Shown here: piece by piece, positions 1,981 to 47,142 of the stretch
Position numbering within the stretch: position 1 is the stretch's first letter
Layout of the letters: every line of letters begins with the position of its first letter
DNA from: Candidatus Cloacimonadota bacterium
Lineage (GTDB): Bacteria; Cloacimonadota; Cloacimonadia; JGIOTU-2
Direction of reading: 5' to 3'
NCBI GenBank assembly: GCA_030613025.1
Contig: JAUWMT010000007.1
Location: 4,882 to 68,881, forward strand
Length of the DNA: 64,000 nt
Program-made: the position numbers and the translations under genes
Notes under the pieces: generated by a model
Databases searched by the model: none
The model's input: only the letters and a program-made list of their open reading frames with translations
What the model was told of the DNA's origin: nothing

Positions 1981-3018
1981 TTAACTCTTCTCAAATAGTT
2001 CGCTTTGCTTCTTTATCTGTTTTCCTGTCGAATCGAGACCAAAATGCTTGTATGCTTTTTCTGTGACTTCTCTGCCGCGAAGGGTTCGTTTCAGAAATCC
2101 TTTTTGCAGTAAATATGGTTCGTATATTTCCTCTATCGTGCCCGGATCTTCACCAATTGCCATGGAAATTGTTTTCAGCCCAACCGGTCCGCCCTGGTAA
2201 AACTCAATGATCGTTTGGATAAGTTTCTTGTCCATCTCATCCAATCCTAACTCATCGACTTCAAGCATTTTCAGTGCAGCATCAGCAATCTCTTTTGTGA
2301 TTACGCCATCCCCTCTTATCTGTGCGTAATCACGAACACGTCGAAGAAGACGGTTTGCAATTCTTGGAGTGCCGCGGGAACGGCATGCAATTTCCTGTGC
2401 CCCATCCTTCTTGATTTCGACACCCAACAATTTTGCAGAACGCAGCACTATCTTAAAAATCTCTTTTGTGTCATAATAATCAAGCCGAAGCACAAGTCCA
2501 AACCTGCTGCGAAGCGGTGAAGTGATCAATCCGGCACGCGTGGTTGAACCTACAAGCGTAAATGGCTCGAGGATCAGACGCAGTGTTCTCGCACTCGGTC
2601 CCTGATCGATGATGATCTCAAGATTGAAATCTTCGATCGCAGGATAGAGGTATTCCTCCACAACATGATTGAGCCGATGTATCTCATCAATAAAAAAGAC
2701 ATCCTTTGCGCTGAGATTTGTCAGAATACCCGCCAGATCGGACGGCTTCTCTATTGCTGGACCTGATGTGGTTTTGAGTTCGGTATTCAGCTCATTTGCA
2801 ATAATAATAGAAAGCGTGGTTTTTCCGAGACCCGGAGGACCGTAAAAAAGTATATGGTCAATCGGCTCATTGCGTTGCTTGCACGCCTGGATCGTGATAG
2901 ATAAGATCTCTTTTATTTTTTCCTGTCCGACAAAATCCTTCAGTGTTTTCGGACGTAGTGTGGTATCATAAGTAACATCGTCATCCATCATTTCAGGATC
3001 TGTTATTCTTTCATCCAT
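1981..3018 (-). CDS. ruvB: Holliday junction branch migration ATPase RuvB
   Basis: 345 aa with Walker [10 protein letters not shown] and RuvB-typical LRP.TL.DF.GQ motif and overall layout. Confidence 0.9.
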
Positions 3019-3028
3019 ACAAACCTCA

Positions 3029-5029
3029 TTACATTTCTTTCAGTTCGAGTATCCTGTCGCGGATCTCGGCAGCTTCTTCGAAGCGCAAATCCCTTGCCAG
3101 ACGGTTCATTTCTCTTGTCAGCAATTCGATAGCGTCTTCTTTGTTATTTATTGTTAGATACTTTTTGAAATCAAGTTTTTTCTGTTCTTCAGCACCGAAA
3201 CCTTTTTTCTGCTCTTTTTTGAATTCGGCAACAGAGGTGGACTGCATGATGCTTTCGATGGTTTTGATGATCGATTCGGGTGTGATATTGTGCTTTTTAT
3301 TATACTCTTTCTGGATCTTTCTGCGGCGGTTCGTTTCACTGATCGCATACTTCATTGCTTCAGATACTTTATCAGCATAAAAAATAACCTTGCCGTCAAT
3401 ATGGCGCGCAGCACGTCCTGCGGTTTGAATGAGCGAGCGAGATGAGCGTAGAAATCCAGCTTTATCAGCATCAAGAATTGCAACTAGTGCAACTTCGGGC
3501 AGATCGAGCCCTTCCCGCAGCAGGTTTACGCCAATAAGCACATCGAACTCTCCCAACCGTAAATCCCTGATGATCTCAATTCTATCCAGCGTATGCACTC
3601 CGCTGTGCAGATACTTTGCCCTCACCCCGATTTGTGACACATAGTTCGTAAGATCTTCTGCCATTTTTTTTGTAAGGGTTGTCACGAGCACGCGCTGCTT
3701 TTTCTCTACGAGCTTTTGGATTTGTTCGAGCAGATCATCAACCTGGAATTCTGATTTTTTAAGCTCGATCTCAGGATCGATAAGACCAGTGGGACGCACT
3801 ATCTGCTCAACGATCACTCCCTGTGATTTATCAAGCTCATAGGCAGCAGGAGTGGCAGACATAAACACAACCTGGCTCATCATTTTCTCAAATTCAGGGA
3901 ATTTCAAAGGACGATTATCATAAGCAGAGGGCAGGCGAAATCCATTATCTACCAACGCTTTTTTTCGTGAGAAGTCTCCTCCAAACATGGCATGAACTTG
4001 TGGGATCGAAGCATGAGATTCATCAATTATCATAAGATAATCATCCGGAAAATAATCCAGCAGGCAGGCAGGACGCTCTCCTTGTTTTCTTCCTGAAAGA
4101 TGCCGTGAATAATTCTCAATGCCGGATACATATCCTACTTCTCGTAGCATTTCGAGGTCAAAACTTGTTCTCTGCTGGATTCGCTGTGCTTCGATCCACA
4201 TATTTTTATCTTTGAAAAACTTCACCCGCTCTTCCATCTCATTTTTGATATTGCCAAGTGCTTTTTCAAGATTTTCCGGAGAGGTAATGAAATGCCTTGC
4301 AGGATACACTGCATACTCGTCAAGCTCTTCCAGAATTTCACCGGTTAGAGGATTGATGCGATATAATTTCGTGATCTCATTGAAATCAAACTCAACTCTG
4401 ATAGAATTTTCGAGATATGCAGGATAAATTTCCACGACATCGCCACGCACACGAAATGTTCCTCGCTGAAATTCAAAATCATTTCGTGCATAATAAATAT
4501 CCACCAGCTTTCGAAGAAGCTCATCCCTTTCCAGCTCCTGTCCGACTTTCAGATCGATGAGCGATTCCCGATATTGCTCGGGCATACCCAATCCATAAAT
4601 ACACGATACACTCGCAACAATAATGACATCCCGACGCTCCATCAAAGACATTGTTGCACGCAGGCGGAGTTTATCTATCTGCTCGTTGATATCCGCATCT
4701 TTTTCAATATAGGTGTCGCTCACAGGCAGGTATGCTTCCGGCTGATAGTAATCATAATAACTCACAAAATATTCGACTGCATTCTTTGGGAAAAGCTGTT
4801 TCATCTCACCAAAGAGCTGTGCTGCGAGGGTTTTATTATGGGAAATGATAAGCACTGGTTTTTCTACATTTTTGATTACATTTGCGATGGTGAAAGTTTT
4901 ACCCGAACCAGTCACGCCGAGAAGTGTCTGGAAGGGAATGTTCCTTTTGATATTTTTTGTAAGTTCCTCAATTGCTTGAGGTTGGTCGCCTCGAGGAGCA
5001 TAATCTGATACTAATTCAAAGTGTTTCAT
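3029..5029 (-). CDS. uvrB: Excinuclease ABC subunit B
   Basis: 666 aa with GVTGSGKT Walker A, helicase motifs and the C-terminal UvrB/UvrC interaction coiled coil (…[24 protein letters not shown]…). Confidence 0.92.
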
Positions 5030-24433: not shown

Positions 24434-24922
24434 TTAATTACTTTTTTGAGAGATATTATTTTTTTTGATAATATCTCTGATATTTGTGATATCCTGCTCA
24501 GTAATACGATGTATTATTGATTTGCATTTTACAAAAAATTTTGGTATCTGATTAATAACCTTCAAATAAAATTCATTATTAATTTGCGGATTAGTATAAT
24601 ATTGATTTTCAATTCGTTGTTCCATTGCTTGTTCTAAAAATGTTAACTCTTCATCCGTAAAATAATCGGTGAGATATGACTGTGCAAATAGTATTGTACA
24701 TTTATGAATTTCAGATTTAACACCAATTTTTTGTAAAATTGAATATAGAGAAAAATACATCGCATAATAAGCAGTGGATATTTTCCAACCCTTATTACTG
24801 ATTTCACTCATTGTTTCAATAGCTTCTTCAGATTTTTTTAGATATGCCTCCGCAAGATTTGTATTTGGCTCAATAAGTTTTAATCCTCTTTTTTGATTAA
24901 AACACCAATTTAATATACTCAT
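24434..24922 (-). CDS. HEPN-like helical partner protein of the adjacent nucleotidyltransferase
   Basis: 162-aa helical protein whose start overlaps the stop of the NTase gene (ATGA). No canonical Rx4-6H motif seen. Confidence 0.35.
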   Translation of the reverse strand: MSILNWCFNQKRGLKLIEPNTNLAEAYLKKSEEAIETMSEISNKGWKISTAYYAMYFSLYSILQKIGVKSEIHKCTILFAQSYLTDYFTDEELTFLEQAMEQRIENQYYTNPQINNEFYLKVINQIPKFFVKCKSIIHRITEQDITNIRDIIKKNNISQKSN

Positions 24923-25518
24923 AAAATTCTCATAATGAATTGATCCGGTTGTGTAATTATGATATGATTTTGAATAACTTCCTTTAATAAATGATCTTTC
25001 AATTTATCCTTTTCAAAAAGCTCATATGAATAATGAAATATGTTTGTTGAAATATTATATATGCTCGAAATTTTTTCTATTTCGGATTTATTGCATTCAC
25101 CAATCACGCAGATGTCTAAATCTGAATCTTCATTTGCATTTCCCTTGGCATAACTTCCAAACAGTAAACTTATACCATCTACTAAAGGTGTGATTTTTTC
25201 AACTATTTGCGAAATAAGAGAGTAATTTTGTAAAAACGCAATTTTTTTATATTGCTCAGTTAAAATCAAATAATCTTTTGAATTTTGGTTATCTTGAAGT
25301 GAAAATACTCTTATTTTTCCTTTAATTTTTGAAGTTAAGATTCCTTTTTTCTCAAGATCATCGAGAATTCTTTGAACGGTTTGAAGCCCAATGTCAATTT
25401 TTTTATATACCTCACGAATATAATATTCTGCTTTATAACCATTGGTAAAGAGGGTTAAAACCTTTAAATGATTTTCTGTAATATGTAGTTTCATACTATT
25501 GTCTCCAATTTGAGACAT
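24919..25518 (-). CDS. Nucleotidyltransferase-domain protein with N-terminal wHTH (MntA/AbiEii-like)
   Basis: LLFGSYAKGNANEDSDLDICVIGE is the GS…DxD polymerase-beta NTase motif. N-terminal HTH is IREVYKKIDIGLQTVQRILDDLEKKGIL. Confidence 0.65.
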   Translation of the reverse strand: MSQIGDNSMKLHITENHLKVLTLFTNGYKAEYYIREVYKKIDIGLQTVQRILDDLEKKGILTSKIKGKIRVFSLQDNQNSKDYLILTEQYKKIAFLQNYSLISQIVEKITPLVDGISLLFGSYAKGNANEDSDLDICVIGECNKSEIEKISSIYNISTNIFHYSYELFEKDKLKDHLLKEVIQNHIIITQPDQFIMRIL

Positions 25519-29104: not shown

Positions 29105-29890
29105 CTATTTCCTAATTTGATTTTTTACAGAGTCAATTGCCTGCTGCACTTTTTCCTGATCACCAAGATAATAATGTGTAATGGCTTTCAGATTTTTATC
29201 CAATTCATAAATAAGCGGAATGCCGGTTGGAATATTGAGACCAACGATTTTTTCATCGGAAATATTGTCCAAATATTTTACAAGGGCGCGCAAACTATTT
29301 CCATGAGCAACAATAATGACCTTTTTATTCCGTTTGATCGCAGGAATGATGGATTCCTTCCAATAGGGGATGAATCGGGCAACAGTATCTTTCAGGCATT
29401 CAGTCAAGGGCAGGTATTTTTCGGGCACATTTGCATACATTGGATCATTTCCCGGGTAGCGTGGATCATCTTTTGTGAGCGCTGGAGGACGGGTATCATA
29501 ACTTCTGCGCCAGACAAGGACTTGTTTTTCACCAAATTCATCAGCTGTCTCTTTTTTATTCAATCCCTGAAGTGCCCCGTAATGCCTCTCGTTCAGTCGC
29601 CATGACCGTTCCACAGGCAGCCACATCATATCCATATCATCCATCACGATCCACAATGTTCTGATCGCCCGTTTGAGCACAGAAGTGAAAGCAATGTCAA
29701 AAGTGAATCCTTCTTTCTGAAGTAATTCTGCGGACTCTTTTGCTTCCCGAATTCCTTTTTCGGAAAGGTCGACATCTGTCCATCCGGTGAATATATTTTC
29801 TTTATTCCAGATGCTCTCTCCATGTCGGAACAGTACGAGTTTATACATAACTGAATTTTCGTGGGAGTGGAAATTACTTAAATAAATCAT
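29105..29890 (-). CDS. gpmA: 2,3-bisphosphoglycerate-dependent phosphoglycerate mutase
   Basis: [12 protein letters not shown] catalytic His motif; 261 aa. Confidence 0.88.
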
Positions 29891-29905
29891 ATTTTAACCT
29901 TTATA

Positions 29906-30587
29906 TATATTCTTCAAATTACAAGTTAGACTTAAATTAAGTTCTAAACCCTAATTTCTAATGACAAATAAAATGTCAAAATTTAAATGTCAAAGTAATT
30001 TTTTCTTCCTTGATTTAATTACAATTGATGAGAAAATTAGATTTACCTCGTTAGATAATTTCATATATATCAGAAAGAATATCTAATAGCATAAATATCT
30101 AACAGGGTTAAGTTCATTAGCTTCTTTCCAATAAATTTTTGCTTCATCTTTTAACTTTGGAACTGCTTTTGAAATCATCCTCAACCAATGTTTTGATTCT
30201 TTAGACTCCTTTTTACAAATACCTATTTTATGTTCGAAATCTCTTTTTGATTCTGCACAATCTGTTTTTTACCCCGTTAGATAATTTTTTACAGATATAT
30301 AACCGATATAATACTTTCTATCGTTAAACCTTTTCCACACTTAAATAAAGCATACATATCTAACGGGGCAGGTAATTAGCACCAACACTTGTACCCGCTT
30401 TAACTAATTGAGTAATTAGAGGTAGAGTTATCGGATTTGGAGGGATTTTTTTTGCAAATTCGATAATATCCTCACCAAATTTTGCAGTTCTCTCCTCTAA
30501 ATCGAATCTCTTTTTATTTGCCATTTGTCATTTGAAATTTCATTAGAAATTAAATATTTGGAATTAGTAATTTAAATTTCTCAGGAT
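29906..30587. mobile_element. About 0.7-kb non-coding insertion upstream of gpmA, flanked by a ~37-bp direct duplication of the gpmA start and containing two MITE-like units
   Basis: The direct repeats GGAAATTACTTAAATAAATCATATTT(T)AACCTTT(T)ATA lie at 29869-29905 and 30588-30624. The two internal units carry CCCCGTTAGATA…TATCTAACGGGG IRs (30045-30106, 30272-30368). The interior is roughly palindromic (AATTTCTAATGACAAATAAAATGTCAAAA). Confidence 0.55.
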
Positions 30588-30628
30588 GGAAATTACTTAA
30601 ATAAATCATATTTAACCTTTTATAATAT

Positions 30629-31555
30629 CTACTGCAAAACTTGAGATACATAATTATTTCTTTTGTAGATACTGAGAGTTTCTTCGGGCGGTCTGCCTTC
30701 TACAGTTATCGCATATATTGCTTTGCACAGGCGAACAGCATCCTGAAGGGTTTTCTGATGAATATTTCTTCCAGTTGCATTTCCTGCAGCGCCTGCCTGG
30801 ATCTGGTCATAAATTCGTTTGAGGAATTCGTCCACATCTACCGAAGATCCGCCTGCACAGATCACGCCTGTTCTCCCTGCTGCTTTTATCGCTTCTTTGA
30901 AATCTTCTTTGGCATGATAAGTATCCGGGTAATTTACTTTTACAAAATCAGCACCGAGACATGAGGCAACACCTGTGGCACCAGCAATAAGATGAGGATC
31001 TTTCTCATTGGTTACCGCCTTTCCGCGCGGATAGATCCAGAGAATTGCGATAAGCCCGTTCTGATGTGCCTGCCTGACGAGATGTGCTGCCTGGCGCAGC
31101 ATTTTGTGTTCATATTCACTGCCAAGATATAATGTGTAGCCAACACCTAAAATTTTCAGGTCACTGATATTTTTAAAGTGGATTACTTCCTGAACTGAAG
31201 TAAGCAGCGCACTATAAGGGTCCTGCTGCGAGGTTTTGATCAGATTGGTTTTTGAGTTGAGCTTCACCACATAGGGAATATTCCTATAGTTATCCCCATA
31301 TCTGGCGATCAAACCAAGCTGAGCAGCGAATGCGCCGATAGGTGATTGGGCAGCAATTTTGAACAGATGTTCCGGATTGGCATCCTCATCGGAAATTCCC
31401 TCACCATAGAAATCATCATTTAGATGTTCGATCTTCTGGTCTCCTGCAAAAAGCATTAATCTTCCGCTTTTACGGGTGATCTCCTGATAATTAAAGATAT
31501 ATGTACCCTTAACATCCTGAGGAACATCTAAAGGGACGCTAGTTCTGTCTTTCAT
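30629..31555 (-). CDS. Class I fructose-bisphosphate aldolase (DhnA/FbaB-type)
   Basis: 308 aa, aldolase-type TIM barrel. Lies next to gpmA. Confidence 0.6.
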   Translation of the reverse strand: MKDRTSVPLDVPQDVKGTYIFNYQEITRKSGRLMLFAGDQKIEHLNDDFYGEGISDEDANPEHLFKIAAQSPIGAFAAQLGLIARYGDNYRNIPYVVKLNSKTNLIKTSQQDPYSALLTSVQEVIHFKNISDLKILGVGYTLYLGSEYEHKMLRQAAHLVRQAHQNGLIAILWIYPRGKAVTNEKDPHLIAGATGVASCLGADFVKVNYPDTYHAKEDFKEAIKAAGRTGVICAGGSSVDVDEFLKRIYDQIQAGAAGNATGRNIHQKTLQDAVRLCKAIYAITVEGRPPEETLSIYKRNNYVSQVLQ

Positions 31556-32561: not shown

Positions 32562-34982
32562 TTACTTCTTCCAATCGTAGGTCAACTTGCCGCACCCGCA
32601 CCTGATTTTGCTTTCCACATTGTCAAAATATTTGATAGAAATAAACTTCCTACACCCGTCGCAGTAAAAGATATGAATGGTCTTTTCAATATCTTCCCAT
32701 ATTGCTGCTAAGTCCTCAATACTTTCTGTAAACTCATTGTCATGAGACGTGACATTACCAATGAACATTGGCATTCCTTTCAGTTTTTGAATGTTGGCCT
32801 TATCCTTTAATCCATTTCCCTTCTTTGAAATTCGACCATGCACAACATCCAATAGTTCAGCAGCCATTCTCTTTTCATTTATTTCATTATATCTAAAAGC
32901 AACTTGGGCCTCTATGTTGTAGGCTATTTCCTTCATTACCTTTTCAGTATAAATCCTTATATAATTACCTAGTCCTTCTTTGTCTTTGGCCTCAAATTTC
33001 TTGAGAATACGTTCCTTGATGTCAGTTATGCCTTCTACAATTCCTACCCCGTTCTCTTTTGACCACTTAAAATCTTGAAGTAGCCAACCTTTACTTTTCA
33101 CATCACTGGCCACTAATTCAAAGAATCCCTGCTCATGTGTAAGTAACAGAATTTGGTAGTTGCTGAACTTATCAGTTAGCAGTTTTGCGAACCTTGATCT
33201 GTGTGGCCTGTCAAAACTTGAAATAACATCGTCAAGGATAAAAAACTCGTTCTGCTTATTGAATGCTTTAACAGAAGCTAAAAAGAAAGATAGGCCAAGA
33301 CAGTTAATGTGACTTTCACTCAAATAGGCGATTGGTGGCGTTTTGGTCTCATCAAAGAAGCTATACTCGATTGTTATTCCGACTAGGTCATCGTTTTTGT
33401 CCTTGATTGGCACTAACTTAATATCCTCAATTTTCTCATTGGGGTTCATAGTAGTGTAATATTCATCAATGTTTGCGGAGAACATTTCAAGAAATACATT
33501 TAAAGCTTCTTCTTGCCTTTTAATAAAATCGGCAAAAAGCAGTTGGAATGTAACTTGTTGTTTTGTTAGTATTTCTTGTTGTCTTTTAATGCTTTGATAT
33601 TGATTGTAAGCGGTGACCGCGTGAAATAGCTTGGTGTATATTTGGAATTTTATATTTGATCTCTTACTTTCTGTGAGCGTCTTTGCCGTGCCTTGTGCTT
33701 GCTTGGCAAGCTCAGATATATCTTTCTTATCAATCTGTATTTTGCTCGGCTCCTGAATTAGGTCTTTAGCTATCAATTCCTTTTTAAGTTCATCAGAAAA
33801 GGCATTCAAGGAGGTTTTAATTTGCTGAACCTTCTCAAGAAGTTTGGCTTGCGTTTCCTCTTTGAAAAGCCTCTCTTTGAGTAACCCATCAATCGTATTG
33901 ATATTGACTCGCAAAATATCTTTTAATTTTTGTCCCTGTTCTCCTAACTTATCCTTCTCTATTTCTAGTTCCTCTAATTCTTTAATCCTTTCATTTAATT
34001 CTATAATCAATTCTATTCTGCTCTTTTCTTGTAGGCAGAGTGGACAGTAATCATCCAGCACAACATCGTTTTTCAAAACACTCTGCCCTTCTTTCAGTAA
34101 AGCGAGAAGTTGTAGTTTTTGAATATTCTCAGGGTCTTTTTGCAGTTCGTTGTAGGTTGTGTGATAAATATTATATCTTGAGTGTATGCTATCAATGTTC
34201 CCGATAATTTCCGTTAAGTTTTCTCCAACCTTCGTATAGAAACTAATTTGCTCTAAAAGAGCTGTTTCTTCTTTGGTTTCAATTGCTTTTAGAACATCTT
34301 GAATATCTTTATGCAGTTTAATATCCTTTTCAATTTGTAATGGTTTTATCAACTGATTTGCTCCCGCAAAAAGTTGGTCATCAGTATAGGCATTTTGTCC
34401 GAGATTTTCGAGAACAACAGCTTGTTGGGCATTTTTCTGATTATCATAGTTGGCTGCTCTGATATTGCGAGCAATTCTTCCAGCTGACTTCTTGAGAAGA
34501 CCGCGGATATCAGTAACAGCAGAAAAGCCAATAATGTTTTGAAGTTTCTCTAGCTTCTCGCCCGGGCGGGCGACAATGAAGCCTACCAGATCTCTGTAGC
34601 GTAGAATTAAATTCTCAGATTGAGAAGCATGCAAATAATCTTTGAAATAATCTGTTGTATTGGATGTAGTTACCTCTAATGAACTGTCAATAGTTTTTGT
34701 TGCATTCAATTTGTTATTGGAATACTGAATGTTAACGAATGCATCTTCATTATTAGGGATAAACAGACTGCGCAATGACCCTCTTCCTTTGGTCACCCCA
34801 GTTTCTTTACTAATCAAATGCTCAACACCATCTGAATAGTACCACTCAACGGCATCAGTCAAAGAGCTTTTCCCCGATCCATTCTCACCAAATATCAGAA
34901 TTGAATTTTTATTTAAGTTTAGTGATAAAGGGATTTTAATGCCCCGTATTCCACTAATTTCGATTGATTTAATCTTTGCCAT
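32562..34982 (-). CDS. Rad50/SMC-like ABC ATPase with CxxC zinc-hook and C-terminal Zn-ribbon extension (RloC-like anticodon-nuclease candidate)
   Basis: Walker A GENGSGKSS; long coiled coil with CPLC near residue 305; signature-like LSESH; Walker B FFILDDV; H-loop LLTHEQ. The ~140-aa C-terminal extension has KRMAAE…H and CDGC…CGCG. Confidence 0.6.
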   Translation of the reverse strand: MAKIKSIEISGIRGIKIPLSLNLNKNSILIFGENGSGKSSLTDAVEWYYSDGVEHLISKETGVTKGRGSLRSLFIPNNEDAFVNIQYSNNKLNATKTIDSSLEVTTSNTTDYFKDYLHASQSENLILRYRDLVGFIVARPGEKLEKLQNIIGFSAVTDIRGLLKKSAGRIARNIRAANYDNQKNAQQAVVLENLGQNAYTDDQLFAGANQLIKPLQIEKDIKLHKDIQDVLKAIETKEETALLEQISFYTKVGENLTEIIGNIDSIHSRYNIYHTTYNELQKDPENIQKLQLLALLKEGQSVLKNDVVLDDYCPLCLQEKSRIELIIELNERIKELEELEIEKDKLGEQGQKLKDILRVNINTIDGLLKERLFKEETQAKLLEKVQQIKTSLNAFSDELKKELIAKDLIQEPSKIQIDKKDISELAKQAQGTAKTLTESKRSNIKFQIYTKLFHAVTAYNQYQSIKRQQEILTKQQVTFQLLFADFIKRQEEALNVFLEMFSANIDEYYTTMNPNEKIEDIKLVPIKDKNDDLVGITIEYSFFDETKTPPIAYLSESHINCLGLSFFLASVKAFNKQNEFFILDDVISSFDRPHRSRFAKLLTDKFSNYQILLLTHEQGFFELVASDVKSKGWLLQDFKWSKENGVGIVEGITDIKERILKKFEAKDKEGLGNYIRIYTEKVMKEIAYNIEAQVAFRYNEINEKRMAAELLDVVHGRISKKGNGLKDKANIQKLKGMPMFIGNVTSHDNEFTESIEDLAAIWEDIEKTIHIFYCDGCRKFISIKYFDNVESKIRCGCGKLTYDWKK

Positions 34983-46738: not shown

Positions 46739-46840
46739 AACCTGGACAAGCCAGAACCAAACAGGAAATATTAATCAATAATAAAGCTAATAATTTCTAA
46801 ATCCAAATTCCTAATGTCAAATAAAATGACAAAACCTTCA

Positions 46841-46938
46841 CCCCGTTAGATAAAAGATTTATATTTTCTAATTTAGGCACTAACACCTTTCTACTCCAAT
46901 AAAGTTACAATTCCTACCATCTTTACTATCTAACAGGG
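46841..46938. repeat. MITE-like element with CCCCGTTAGATA…TATCTAACAGGG terminal inverted repeats
   Basis: Same IR family as 30045-30106 and 30272-30368. The adjacent sequence CTAATGTCAAATAAAATGACAAAA also recurs at 29960. Confidence 0.6.
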
Positions 46939-47142
46939 CAAGAATGTCAAATCATGCTACAACAAAATCTCCGAAGACTAATCCTGTTATATTTGGTATT
47001 TGATATTTGTAATTAGTCATTTAACCTCTTCTATAAAAGGATTTCCAAGCATAATAATCCCTATATATCGGGATGCCAAAAATCACATAAATTTTATTGA
47101 TAAGATACTAATATTTTTTGTTTATTTATTAACAAGTGTTAT

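Follow-up and report, generated by a model that had tools for sequence, protein, structure and literature searches.

In the 64,000-nt stretch of Candidatus Cloacimonadota contig JAUWMT010000007.1 analyzed here (the window), the genes for a DhnA-type aldolase and a 2,3-bisphosphoglycerate-dependent phosphoglycerate mutase (gpmA) are separated by a block of 793 bp. This block is very probably a degenerate copy of a non-autonomous transposable cassette of ~627 bp that occurs in Cloacimonadota. Comparison with related sequences shows that the cassette is a discrete unit with inverted ends that inserts at intercistronic junctions with 8–10-bp target duplications and has spread across loci and hosts. 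Its only open reading frame (ORF) is a 122-aa four-helix-bundle gene of the 23S rRNA intervening sequence (IVS) protein family, and no transposase gene is present in the cassette. In the window copy, this ORF was later lost to the insertion of two nested hairpin mini-elements and to a 1-nt deletion.

Insertion at the aldolase–gpmA junction and at other loci

An empty version of the site is found in Candidatus Cloacimonas sp. 4484_140 (comparator sequence L003), where the aldolase stop codon overlaps the gpmA ATG (ATGTATAA) with no intervening DNA. The L003 junction reads ...AATTATTATGTATAAACTCG and contains a single TTATGTATAA, equivalent to the window flanks minus one copy of the duplication. 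The 793-bp insert of the window (29851–30643, minus strand), which is composed of a 626-bp cassette and nested inserts of 101 and 66 nt, lies at the exact point of this overlap. Two metagenome-assembled genomes (MAGs; L012 and L004) have an insert at the same point, the ORF being internally deleted in the L004 copy. Read on the minus strand, the window element begins with CAAGTTTTGCAG at 30643 and ends with ...CGAAAATTCAG at 29851, boundaries that were set by comparing five insertion sites and that exceed the 29869–30624 given for the insert in a first-pass annotation. The target-site duplication (TSD) reads TTATGTATCT on the left (30644–30653, minus strand) and TTATGTATAA on the right (29841–29850, minus strand), where it holds the gpmA start codon (29848–29846). 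This duplication (TTATGTAT..) is 8–10 bp long, with 8 of 10 positions matching between the left and right copies and a best register of 9 bp that is uncertain by ~1 nt. The GC content of the block is 0.21–0.35, compared with ~0.38–0.49 in the flanking genes, and the window aldolase is 91–95% identical to Cloacimonas MAG aldolases. A promoter and terminator scan gave nothing exceeding shuffled sequences.

The same unit is present at four other gene junctions: between an ATP-cone/PRK gene and a DinG-like helicase gene (L016; duplication TTATTTAATT, 10/10), between an AI-2E transporter gene and TerB (L018; TTATATAACA / TTATTTAACA, 9/10), between rplW and rplB (L104; TAAATTGACT / TTAATTGATT, 8/10) and between tpiA and serS (L105; TCAGTAAC, 8/8). 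All four copies have both of the repeat modules described below and share the 5′ end (T)CAAGTTTCGCAG and the 3′ end CTGCGAAACTTCAG, the two ends being mutually inverted. With the window included, 8–10-bp duplications are found at five sites, in a common register within ~1 nt. The window copy minus its nested inserts is 626 bp and the other copies are 627–629 bp; the window is 89–93% identical to the four other loci over ~625 nt, and identities among copies overall are 89–94%.

From 5′ to 3′ on the minus strand, the cassette consists of an outer module L, an inner arm L, the 122-codon four-helix-bundle ORF, an inner arm R that is arm L inverted, and an outer module R. Module L (30571–30643, ~73–75 nt) has inverted ends of its own, CAAGTTTTGCAG ... 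CTGAGAAATTT, and contains a Shine–Dalgarno (SD)-like AAAGG, an ATG and a 19-codon mini-ORF. Module R (29851–29925, ~75 nt) has an SD-like AAAGG 8 nt before an ATG (29890–29888) and a mini-ORF that has no stop before the element ends and, in the window, is in frame with gpmA. The modules are direct copies of a ~73-nt unit with its own 12–16-bp inverted ends, and the outermost module ends therefore form the terminal inverted repeat (TIR) of the cassette, CAAGTTTCGCAG at the 5′ end as against GAAGTTTCGCAG for the reverse complement of the 3′ end. In L104 the modules are ~93% identical (by eye), each with a perfect 16-bp inverted repeat, TCAAGTTTCGCAGGAG/CTCCTGCGAAACTTGA. Arm L (30522–30570, ..TTTCTAATGAAATTTCAAATGACAAATGG) is heptamer-periodic and abuts and overlaps the ORF start codon, with TRF reporting a period of 7/14 at 30516–30583; arm R (29926–29989, CATTTAAATTTTGACATTTTATTTGTCATTAGAAATTAGGGTTTAGAAC...) is its inverted repeat and begins directly past the ORF stop codon. 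The end segments that the first-pass annotation had described as near reverse complements lie in these arms (29952–29980 and 30524–30552; 29 nt, 83% complementary).

The first-pass annotation had also described a ~37-bp direct repeat bounding the insert, and had taken it for a duplication of the start of gpmA generated when an unrelated, non-coding sequence inserted. The repeat is real: positions 29868–29905 in module R and 30587–30624 in module L align without gaps over 38 nt at 92% identity with a 27-nt exact core (blastn E = 2.8e-9), both copies read MIYLSNFH... on the minus strand, and the distal copy stops after 19 codons (ORF 30550–30651). It flanks most of the insert, and its proximal copy is in frame with gpmA, as that model would have it. 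The model is nevertheless almost certainly wrong, because both copies accompany the cassette at the unrelated rplW–rplB, tpiA–serS, AI-2E–TerB and PRK–DinG junctions, no copy exists at the empty site, and gpmA homology starts 14 codons downstream. The module structure of L104 identifies the repeat as the core of two direct ~73-nt module copies, and its presence at unrelated loci and absence from the empty site place it with the cassette rather than with gpmA. An ordinary conserved gpmA leader likewise fails as an explanation, since the site is empty in L003. What stands of the earlier interpretation is an insertion with repeat-bounded, palindromic, MITE-like content (MITE, miniature inverted-repeat transposable element); the gpmA duplication and the non-coding interior do not.

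The true gpmA coding sequence is 29105–29848 (minus strand, 247 aa; NF010713, E = 6.7e-128). Because the NF010713 alignment begins at residue 15 of the 261-aa ORF, we assign the start to the ATG at 29848, and MIYLSNFH is not the gpmA N terminus. The gpmA ORFs of L003 and L012 are likewise 247 aa long, that of L003 having no repeat upstream. On the other side, the final 5–6 codons (SQVLQ*) and the TAG stop (30631–30629) of the aldolase gene (PRK06852; 30629–31555, minus strand) lie inside the element. The aldolase ends in ...NYYV* in L003 versus ...NNYVSQVLQ* in the window; the insertion thus took away the original stop codon, so that the aldolase now reads 5–6 codons into the element.

The insertion leaves marks on annotation and assembly. 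Gene callers lengthen gpmA by 14 codons (29848–29890), and the public record holds the 261-aa rather than the 247-aa product; the aldolase gains a 5-residue tail, SQVLQ, from the terminal repeat of the element (30629–30646). Exact-protein look-ups of the aldolase and gpmA returned two Logan contigs alone (L001 and L002, from SRR12623518), apparently of the same organism, which match the window over the stretches compared and are both broken at the element, the short-read assembly ending inside it from both sides (~29988 and ~30608). Such breaks are consistent with a multi-copy repeat in that genome.

The family extends well beyond these sites. A search with the intact ORF of L012 gave 5758 homologues, of which the top 120 are 76–96% identical, with Cloacimonadota, TA06, Deltaproteobacteria, Nitrospirae and Wolfebacteria MAGs among their source names. 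Relatives at 71–100% protein identity sit in host flanks with a GC content of 0.30–0.50, their ORFs having 0.30–0.42. The inner arms are conserved in most of ~100 related loci (in L053, TRF reports a period of 7 with 4–10 copies in the arms), and the outer modules are confined to the Cloacimonadota-type subfamily. Among 56 distinct sites, both neighbors are on the same strand as the element at 27, both are on the opposite strand at none, and the neighbors are mixed at seven; for co-directional pairs the sense orientation is thus 27:0 (binomial P ~7e-9). At ~17 of the 27 sites the element ends 0–14 nt from the downstream ATG, and typically the whole spacer is filled. Gene-less deletion derivatives occur at 46780–47030 of the window, at 2640–3040 of L020 and at 738–845 of L053. 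A scan of 20 related loci at the Rfam gathering threshold found one tRNA and no flanking rRNA.

Several observations weigh against the transposable-cassette interpretation. Only one empty-site genome, L003, was found for the aldolase–gpmA junction, and its aldolase is 93% identical to that of the window versus 91% for the occupied L004. Since L003 is no more distant than L004, the pattern calls for either a precise loss or a noisy phylogeny. A second empty/occupied pair, L018 (empty) and L020 (occupied) between TerB and YbaB, supports insertion but is less clean. The duplications are imperfect at three of the five sites, with the ~1-nt uncertainty in register noted above, and almost all comparator sequences are MAG or metagenome contigs. 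In the 464 kb examined we found no transposase, no parent insertion sequence (IS) with the TIR TCAAGTTTCGCAGGAG and no solo 73-nt module. Finally, in the wider family, which has arms and no outer modules, the best match between sequences at the arm boundaries averages 4.58/8 against a null of 4.44 ± 0.14, and at 30 wide-family sites no long direct repeat in the flanks exceeds the 95th percentile expected under the null. The lack of a duplication signal in the wider family means that the arm–ORF–arm core may move differently from the cassette.

Decay of the four-helix-bundle gene by nested hairpin mini-elements

Contrary to the first-pass annotation, the interior of the block is not devoid of coding sequence. 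Profile and tblastn searches identify a disrupted four-helix-bundle gene (TIGR02436/PF05635) at 29990–30524 on the minus strand, spelled jointly by three minus-strand frames. The reconstituted protein matches TIGR02436 at positions 3–106 of 109 (E = 2.5e-13, 50.2 bits against a cut-off of 24) and PF05635 slightly below its cut-off (E = 5.7e-8, 33.4 bits against 33.8). Tblastn of the window with an intact homologue gives E values of 3e-36 and 2e-30. The three frames result from a 101-nt insert, a 66-nt insert and a 1-nt deletion, which make the window copy a pseudogene, and its length agrees with this account (369 + 101 + 66 − 1 = 535 nt).

Intact homologues (P0001 and others) are 119–122 residues long, end in ...EANELNLIFSSIVIKSRKKKLL, which is the tail that is out of register in the window, and all carry a precomputed PF05635 assignment. 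A solved homologue is PDB 2RLD (E = 1e-11), deposited with five chains. Intact copies at different loci have dN/dS values of 0.09–0.25, a substitution pattern that indicates purifying selection on the ORF. PADLOC and PHROG searches gave no match, nor did look-ups of proteins P0006 and P0009. The protein has no close relative in viral collections, and phage and plasmid databases returned only homologues that are 32–40% identical, mostly from cyanobacterial plasmids.

One of these distant relatives shares the inverted-repeat architecture. On plasmid pNFSY05 of Nostoc flagelliforme (L113; NZ_CP024790.1, 33785–34920), a gene annotated as 'four helix bundle protein' (35% identity) lies between the arms of a perfect inverted repeat, 31 nt long and built of tandem heptamers, (AATTCAA)n / (TTTGAAT)n. 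Farther out, a direct repeat, TGGAGTTGGGT, is found where the upstream ORF ends and again where an unannotated ORF begins downstream.

The two inserts are mini-elements with common termini, 5′-CCCCGTTAGATA...TATCTAACGGGG-TAAA-3′. Mini-element A (30268–30368, minus strand, 101 nt) breaks codon ~52 and folds into a hairpin of −29.5 kcal/mol; mini-element B (30042–30107, minus strand, 66 nt) lies between codons N106 and L107. Their inverted repeats, at 30272–30368 with perfect 12-nt arms and at 30046–30107 with one mismatch per arm, delimit the units that the first-pass annotation had called MITE-like. The units are genuine and bounded by inverted repeats, yet they are not native content of the insert but secondary insertions that broke the gene. 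When B is deleted in silico, ...ELN–LIFSS... is restored exactly in frame and sequence, matching intact homologues that lack B (ELN-LIFSS continuous). Deleting A leaves the separate 1-nt deletion, four bases upstream (~30372), and in the L012 copy, which lacks A, GANYSEADCAESK is unbroken. B occupies the identical position in the window, L012, L004 and a degenerate copy in L020. That last copy (2640–3040; L020 is from the same MAG as L012, GCA_030611765) lies between TerB and YbaB, is absent in L018, L019 and L022, and has lost nearly all of its ORF while keeping a B insert near-identical to that of the window, so that cassettes already carrying B, and hence encoding a truncated protein, still spread.

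Neither A nor B is flanked by a target duplication, and both fold into hairpins of −20 to −30 kcal/mol. The CCCCGTTAGATA/TATCTAACGGGG pattern occurs seven times in the window against 2.7 expected, a count reached in none of 100 shuffles. A third hairpin of the window, mini-element C (46837–46938), lies within the gene-less remnant at 46780–47030 (minus strand), which comprises a fragment of arm L (ACTAATTACAAATATC) and an arm R (46791–46835). This remnant is situated between two minus-strand genes and is co-oriented with both. Further hairpin copies are nested within B in L004 and inserted in arm R of L104, and a copy in L040 has a flank GC content of 0.49 and a GC-rich interior. Across copies, the termini are conserved and the interiors unrelated, hairpin energies are −17 to −33 kcal/mol, junctions are exact and free of duplication, and a 3′ TRAA is conserved in 8 of 8 copies, the left flanks being variable (CTG, TAA, TCA, TCA, AAA and TTG).

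Integron attC sites were considered for these hairpins and rejected. ATCTAAC and GTTAGAT fit the consensus 5′-RYYYAAC ... GTTRRRY-3′ but in the reverse arrangement (GTTAGAT ... ATCTAAC), and the hairpins have no cassette array or integrase nearby. In viral collections, the hairpin motif was found in two viral contigs only. One of them, L111 (IMGVR_UViG_3300038429_000794), has 2–3 CCCCGTTAGAAAT...ATTTCTAACGGGGTGAA hairpins (~3244–3324, ~3961–3990 and ~3440–3470), of which one, with a 3-nt loop, is in frame within an ORF (..PVRNWISNGVN..) and another forms the start (MISNGVN..) of a 265-aa ORF. Palindromes of a different kind occur in the arms themselves: a GC-rich palindrome, TCCCGACNTGTCGGGA, replaces AT-rich sequence at mirror positions in both arms (L012, 560–600 and 1075–1095; L004, 3400–3425), and other GC-rich palindromes are found within the arms of L051, L056, L081 and L085. 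The arms thus seem to attract small palindromic inserts, or else both arms evolve in concert.

Role of the arms, origin of the modules and a possible route of mobility

The alternative that fares best concerns the role of the arms and is compatible with transposition of the cassette as DNA. It proposes an IVS-like RNA element in which the arms pair in the polycistronic transcript and RNase III cuts the resulting stem, separating the aldolase and gpmA mRNAs and controlling expression of the ORF. At each of 45 sites the arms are inverted repeats, and their duplexes average −31 kcal/mol. In the minimum free energy structure of the L016 core, and likewise in the centroid structure, arm L pairs with arm R and the AUG falls within the stem. 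The strict sense orientation within operons also fits such a role, as does the parallel with the RNase III-excised IVS of Coxiella, which shares the protein family and the heptamers beside the start codon (PMC4990558). Other results argue against it. Duplexes are as stable in the antisense as in the sense strand (−30.7 versus −31.0 kcal/mol, Wilcoxon p = 0.83), RNAalifold finds no consensus pairs in 21 arm pairs, and the arm variants TAAC, TTTCATT and TAATG are uncompensated. The fold z-score is only −1.7, a search of 29700–30800 at a permissive Rfam threshold gave no match, and tandem heptamers are more typical of protein-binding arrays than of an RNA stem. We therefore consider processing of an arm–arm stem rather unlikely. 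The equal stability of sense and antisense duplexes and the lack of covariation lead us to favor arms that would serve as protein-binding arrays.

A second alternative addresses how the outer modules arose. Here, the arm–ORF–arm core would have inserted into a 73-nt MITE with a long target duplication, after which the MITE transposase moved the composite; the 38-nt repeat would then be the trace of an ancient duplication within the MITE. Each module does have its own inverted ends, the L104 modules are highly similar, and the distant Nostoc flagelliforme plasmid copy combines a perfect 31-nt heptamer inverted repeat with the flanking direct repeat TGGAGTTGGGT. The failure to find a solo module in the 464 kb speaks against this origin, as does the lack of long flanking direct repeats at the 30 wide-family sites, and two independent MITE insertions around the core, as in the origin of a composite transposon, explain the structure equally well. 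Overall, we regard an insertion of the core into a MITE as unlikely.

A remnant of a diversity-generating retroelement (DGR), with the four-helix-bundle gene as its Avd accessory gene, would be in keeping with PF05635 proteins, which resemble Avd and form the commonest Pfam family beside DGR reverse transcriptases (PMC10053308), but it can be dismissed with near certainty: the window neighbors are aldolase, gpmA, metG, SpoIID, band-7 and SMC_N ATPase genes, those identified at six sites are housekeeping genes, the PADLOC and PHROG searches gave no match, and no reverse transcriptase or template/variable repeat (TR/VR) lies within 5 kb in the window or at the other sites.

Returning to the transposable cassette, the history of the window locus can be outlined as follows. 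The cassette landed exactly on the overlapping aldolase-stop/gpmA-start junction, duplicating 8–10 bp of target. Several IS families typically generate ~9-bp target duplications, and a DDE-type transposase may mobilize the cassette in trans through ~9-bp staggered cuts. The sense orientation of the cassette suggests that its ORF would be expressed by read-through from the host operon.

Module R, with its SD-like AAAGG, ATG and open mini-ORF, might in turn provide the downstream host gene with a new translation start or with translational coupling. An SD sequence is used by 27 of 39 long ORFs in this genome. In L016, L018 and L105 the module R mini-ORF stops at a TAA within the duplication, and in the last of these the stop precedes the serS ATG by 1 nt. 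The L012 mini-ORF overlaps the ATG of gpmA, and that of L025 shares its frame with a lipoprotein gene. These arrangements come from six related copies of shared ancestry, and L104 keeps neither the frame nor the SD-like sequence; both facts count against a rescue of translation, which we accordingly put forward only tentatively, as the less probable outcome.

Relation to known elements and implications

The window locus itself is a dead copy. The family to which it belongs is a variant of the non-autonomous transposable cassette, with an architecture resembling that of rRNA intervening sequences. The 23S rRNA IVSs with an S23p ORF in Leptospira, Coxiella, Xanthomonas and Brucella similarly enclose a PF05635/TIGR02436 ORF within inverted repeats. 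They share with the cassette heptamers beside the start codon, a sense orientation in the host transcript, a sporadic distribution suggesting horizontal transfer and an ORF prone to decay (PMC4990558). However, the cassette occupies mRNA intercistronic junctions instead of rRNA helices 25/45 and possesses outer TIR modules and 8–10-bp target duplications, and the sequence data do not favor an RNA-stem constraint.

The cassette also resembles mobile insertion cassettes (MICs), such as MIC231 of Bacillus cereus, and MITEs in having TIRs, a target duplication, no transposase gene, a small passenger ORF, dispersed copies and gene-less derivatives. By ISfinder definitions, MICs and MITEs are IS-end-bounded elements without a transposase. 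The cassette differs in that no parent IS was found in the 464 kb examined, in that its ends are two direct copies of a 73-nt module, giving a composite-like structure, in its strong sense and gene-junction bias, and in its passenger, invariably the one conserved four-helix-bundle gene, on which selection is purifying. Avd of DGRs belongs to the same four-helix-bundle superfamily, but the cassette gene has no linked reverse transcriptase or TR/VR and lies inside its own inverted-repeat/TIR cassette. Correia/NEMIS and ERIC elements are MITEs that are co-transcribed with operons and processed as RNA hairpins, with no ORF, a TA duplication and experimental RNase III/RNase E effects. Like the cassette, they lie between operon genes and have inverted repeats able to form long mRNA hairpins; the cassette, in contrast, carries an ORF and an 8–10-bp duplication, and RNA processing of it is hypothetical.

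For the nested mini-elements, the closest comparison is with REPINs and IS200/IS605-type elements. The two groups have in common hairpins of ~60–100 nt, a pair of inverted ends that are conserved around a more variable spacer, no target duplication, a conserved tetranucleotide (TRAA in the mini-elements) at one hairpin foot, and nested insertions. The mini-elements differ in that their ends are not palindromic REP (repetitive extragenic palindromic) sequences, no target tetranucleotide is conserved on the left and the interior of one copy is unrelated to that of another. No RAYT/TnpA was found for them, although no genome-wide search for a Y1 transposase was made.

Two other regions of the window contain genes of note. 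At 24434–25518 (minus strand), downstream of SpoIID, a nucleotidyltransferase gene (PF01909/PF18765, 199 aa) and an overlapping 162-aa ORF without a Pfam match form a pair that looks like an MNT/HEPN-type toxin–antitoxin system. At 32562–34982 (minus strand), beside the band-7 gene, an 806-aa SMC_N/AAA-type ATPase ORF with a GC content of ~0.31–0.37 and a Cys-rich C terminus (CDGCRKF...CGCGKLTYDW) may be a defense-type or otherwise acquired gene.

A far broader proposal would place the S23p/Avd-like ORF, with its flanking inverted repeats, at the center of a separate class of selfish elements that crosses phyla, includes the classical 23S rRNA IVSs and specifically colonizes transcribed junctions, intercistronic or in rRNA helices, in the sense orientation. 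The protein would bind the heptamer arms and be the factor behind the mobility or maintenance of the element, perhaps through recruitment of a host reverse transcriptase or recombinase. The outer module would restore translation downstream, and the nested CCCCGTTAG hairpins would be a second unrecognized class that homes on cassettes without target duplication. We offer this scheme as speculation and think it improbable as a whole.

In practical terms, the element misleads gene callers, by 14 codons in gpmA and five in the aldolase, and breaks short-read assemblies at this locus. For the protein family, the implications are broader. Function and mobility of the 23S rRNA IVS proteins, which have thousands of paralogues and are related to Avd, have been debated since the early 1990s, and work on the Coxiella IVS still cites two long-standing ideas, a 'transposition remnant' and a 'mobile element whose ORF is needed for mobility' (PMC4990558). 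Literature searches, limited to one library of papers, turned up no account of such genes in cassettes bounded by TIRs and TSDs. The identity of the mobilizing enzyme, any binding of the protein to the heptamer arms and any processing of the transcript are all approachable by experiment. The window locus and its relatives provide concrete evidence for discrete mobile units around an S23p-type ORF outside rRNA, in the form of an empty site, 8–10-bp duplications at five sites, copies 89–94% identical at unrelated loci, purifying selection on the ORF and a 27:0 sense orientation.

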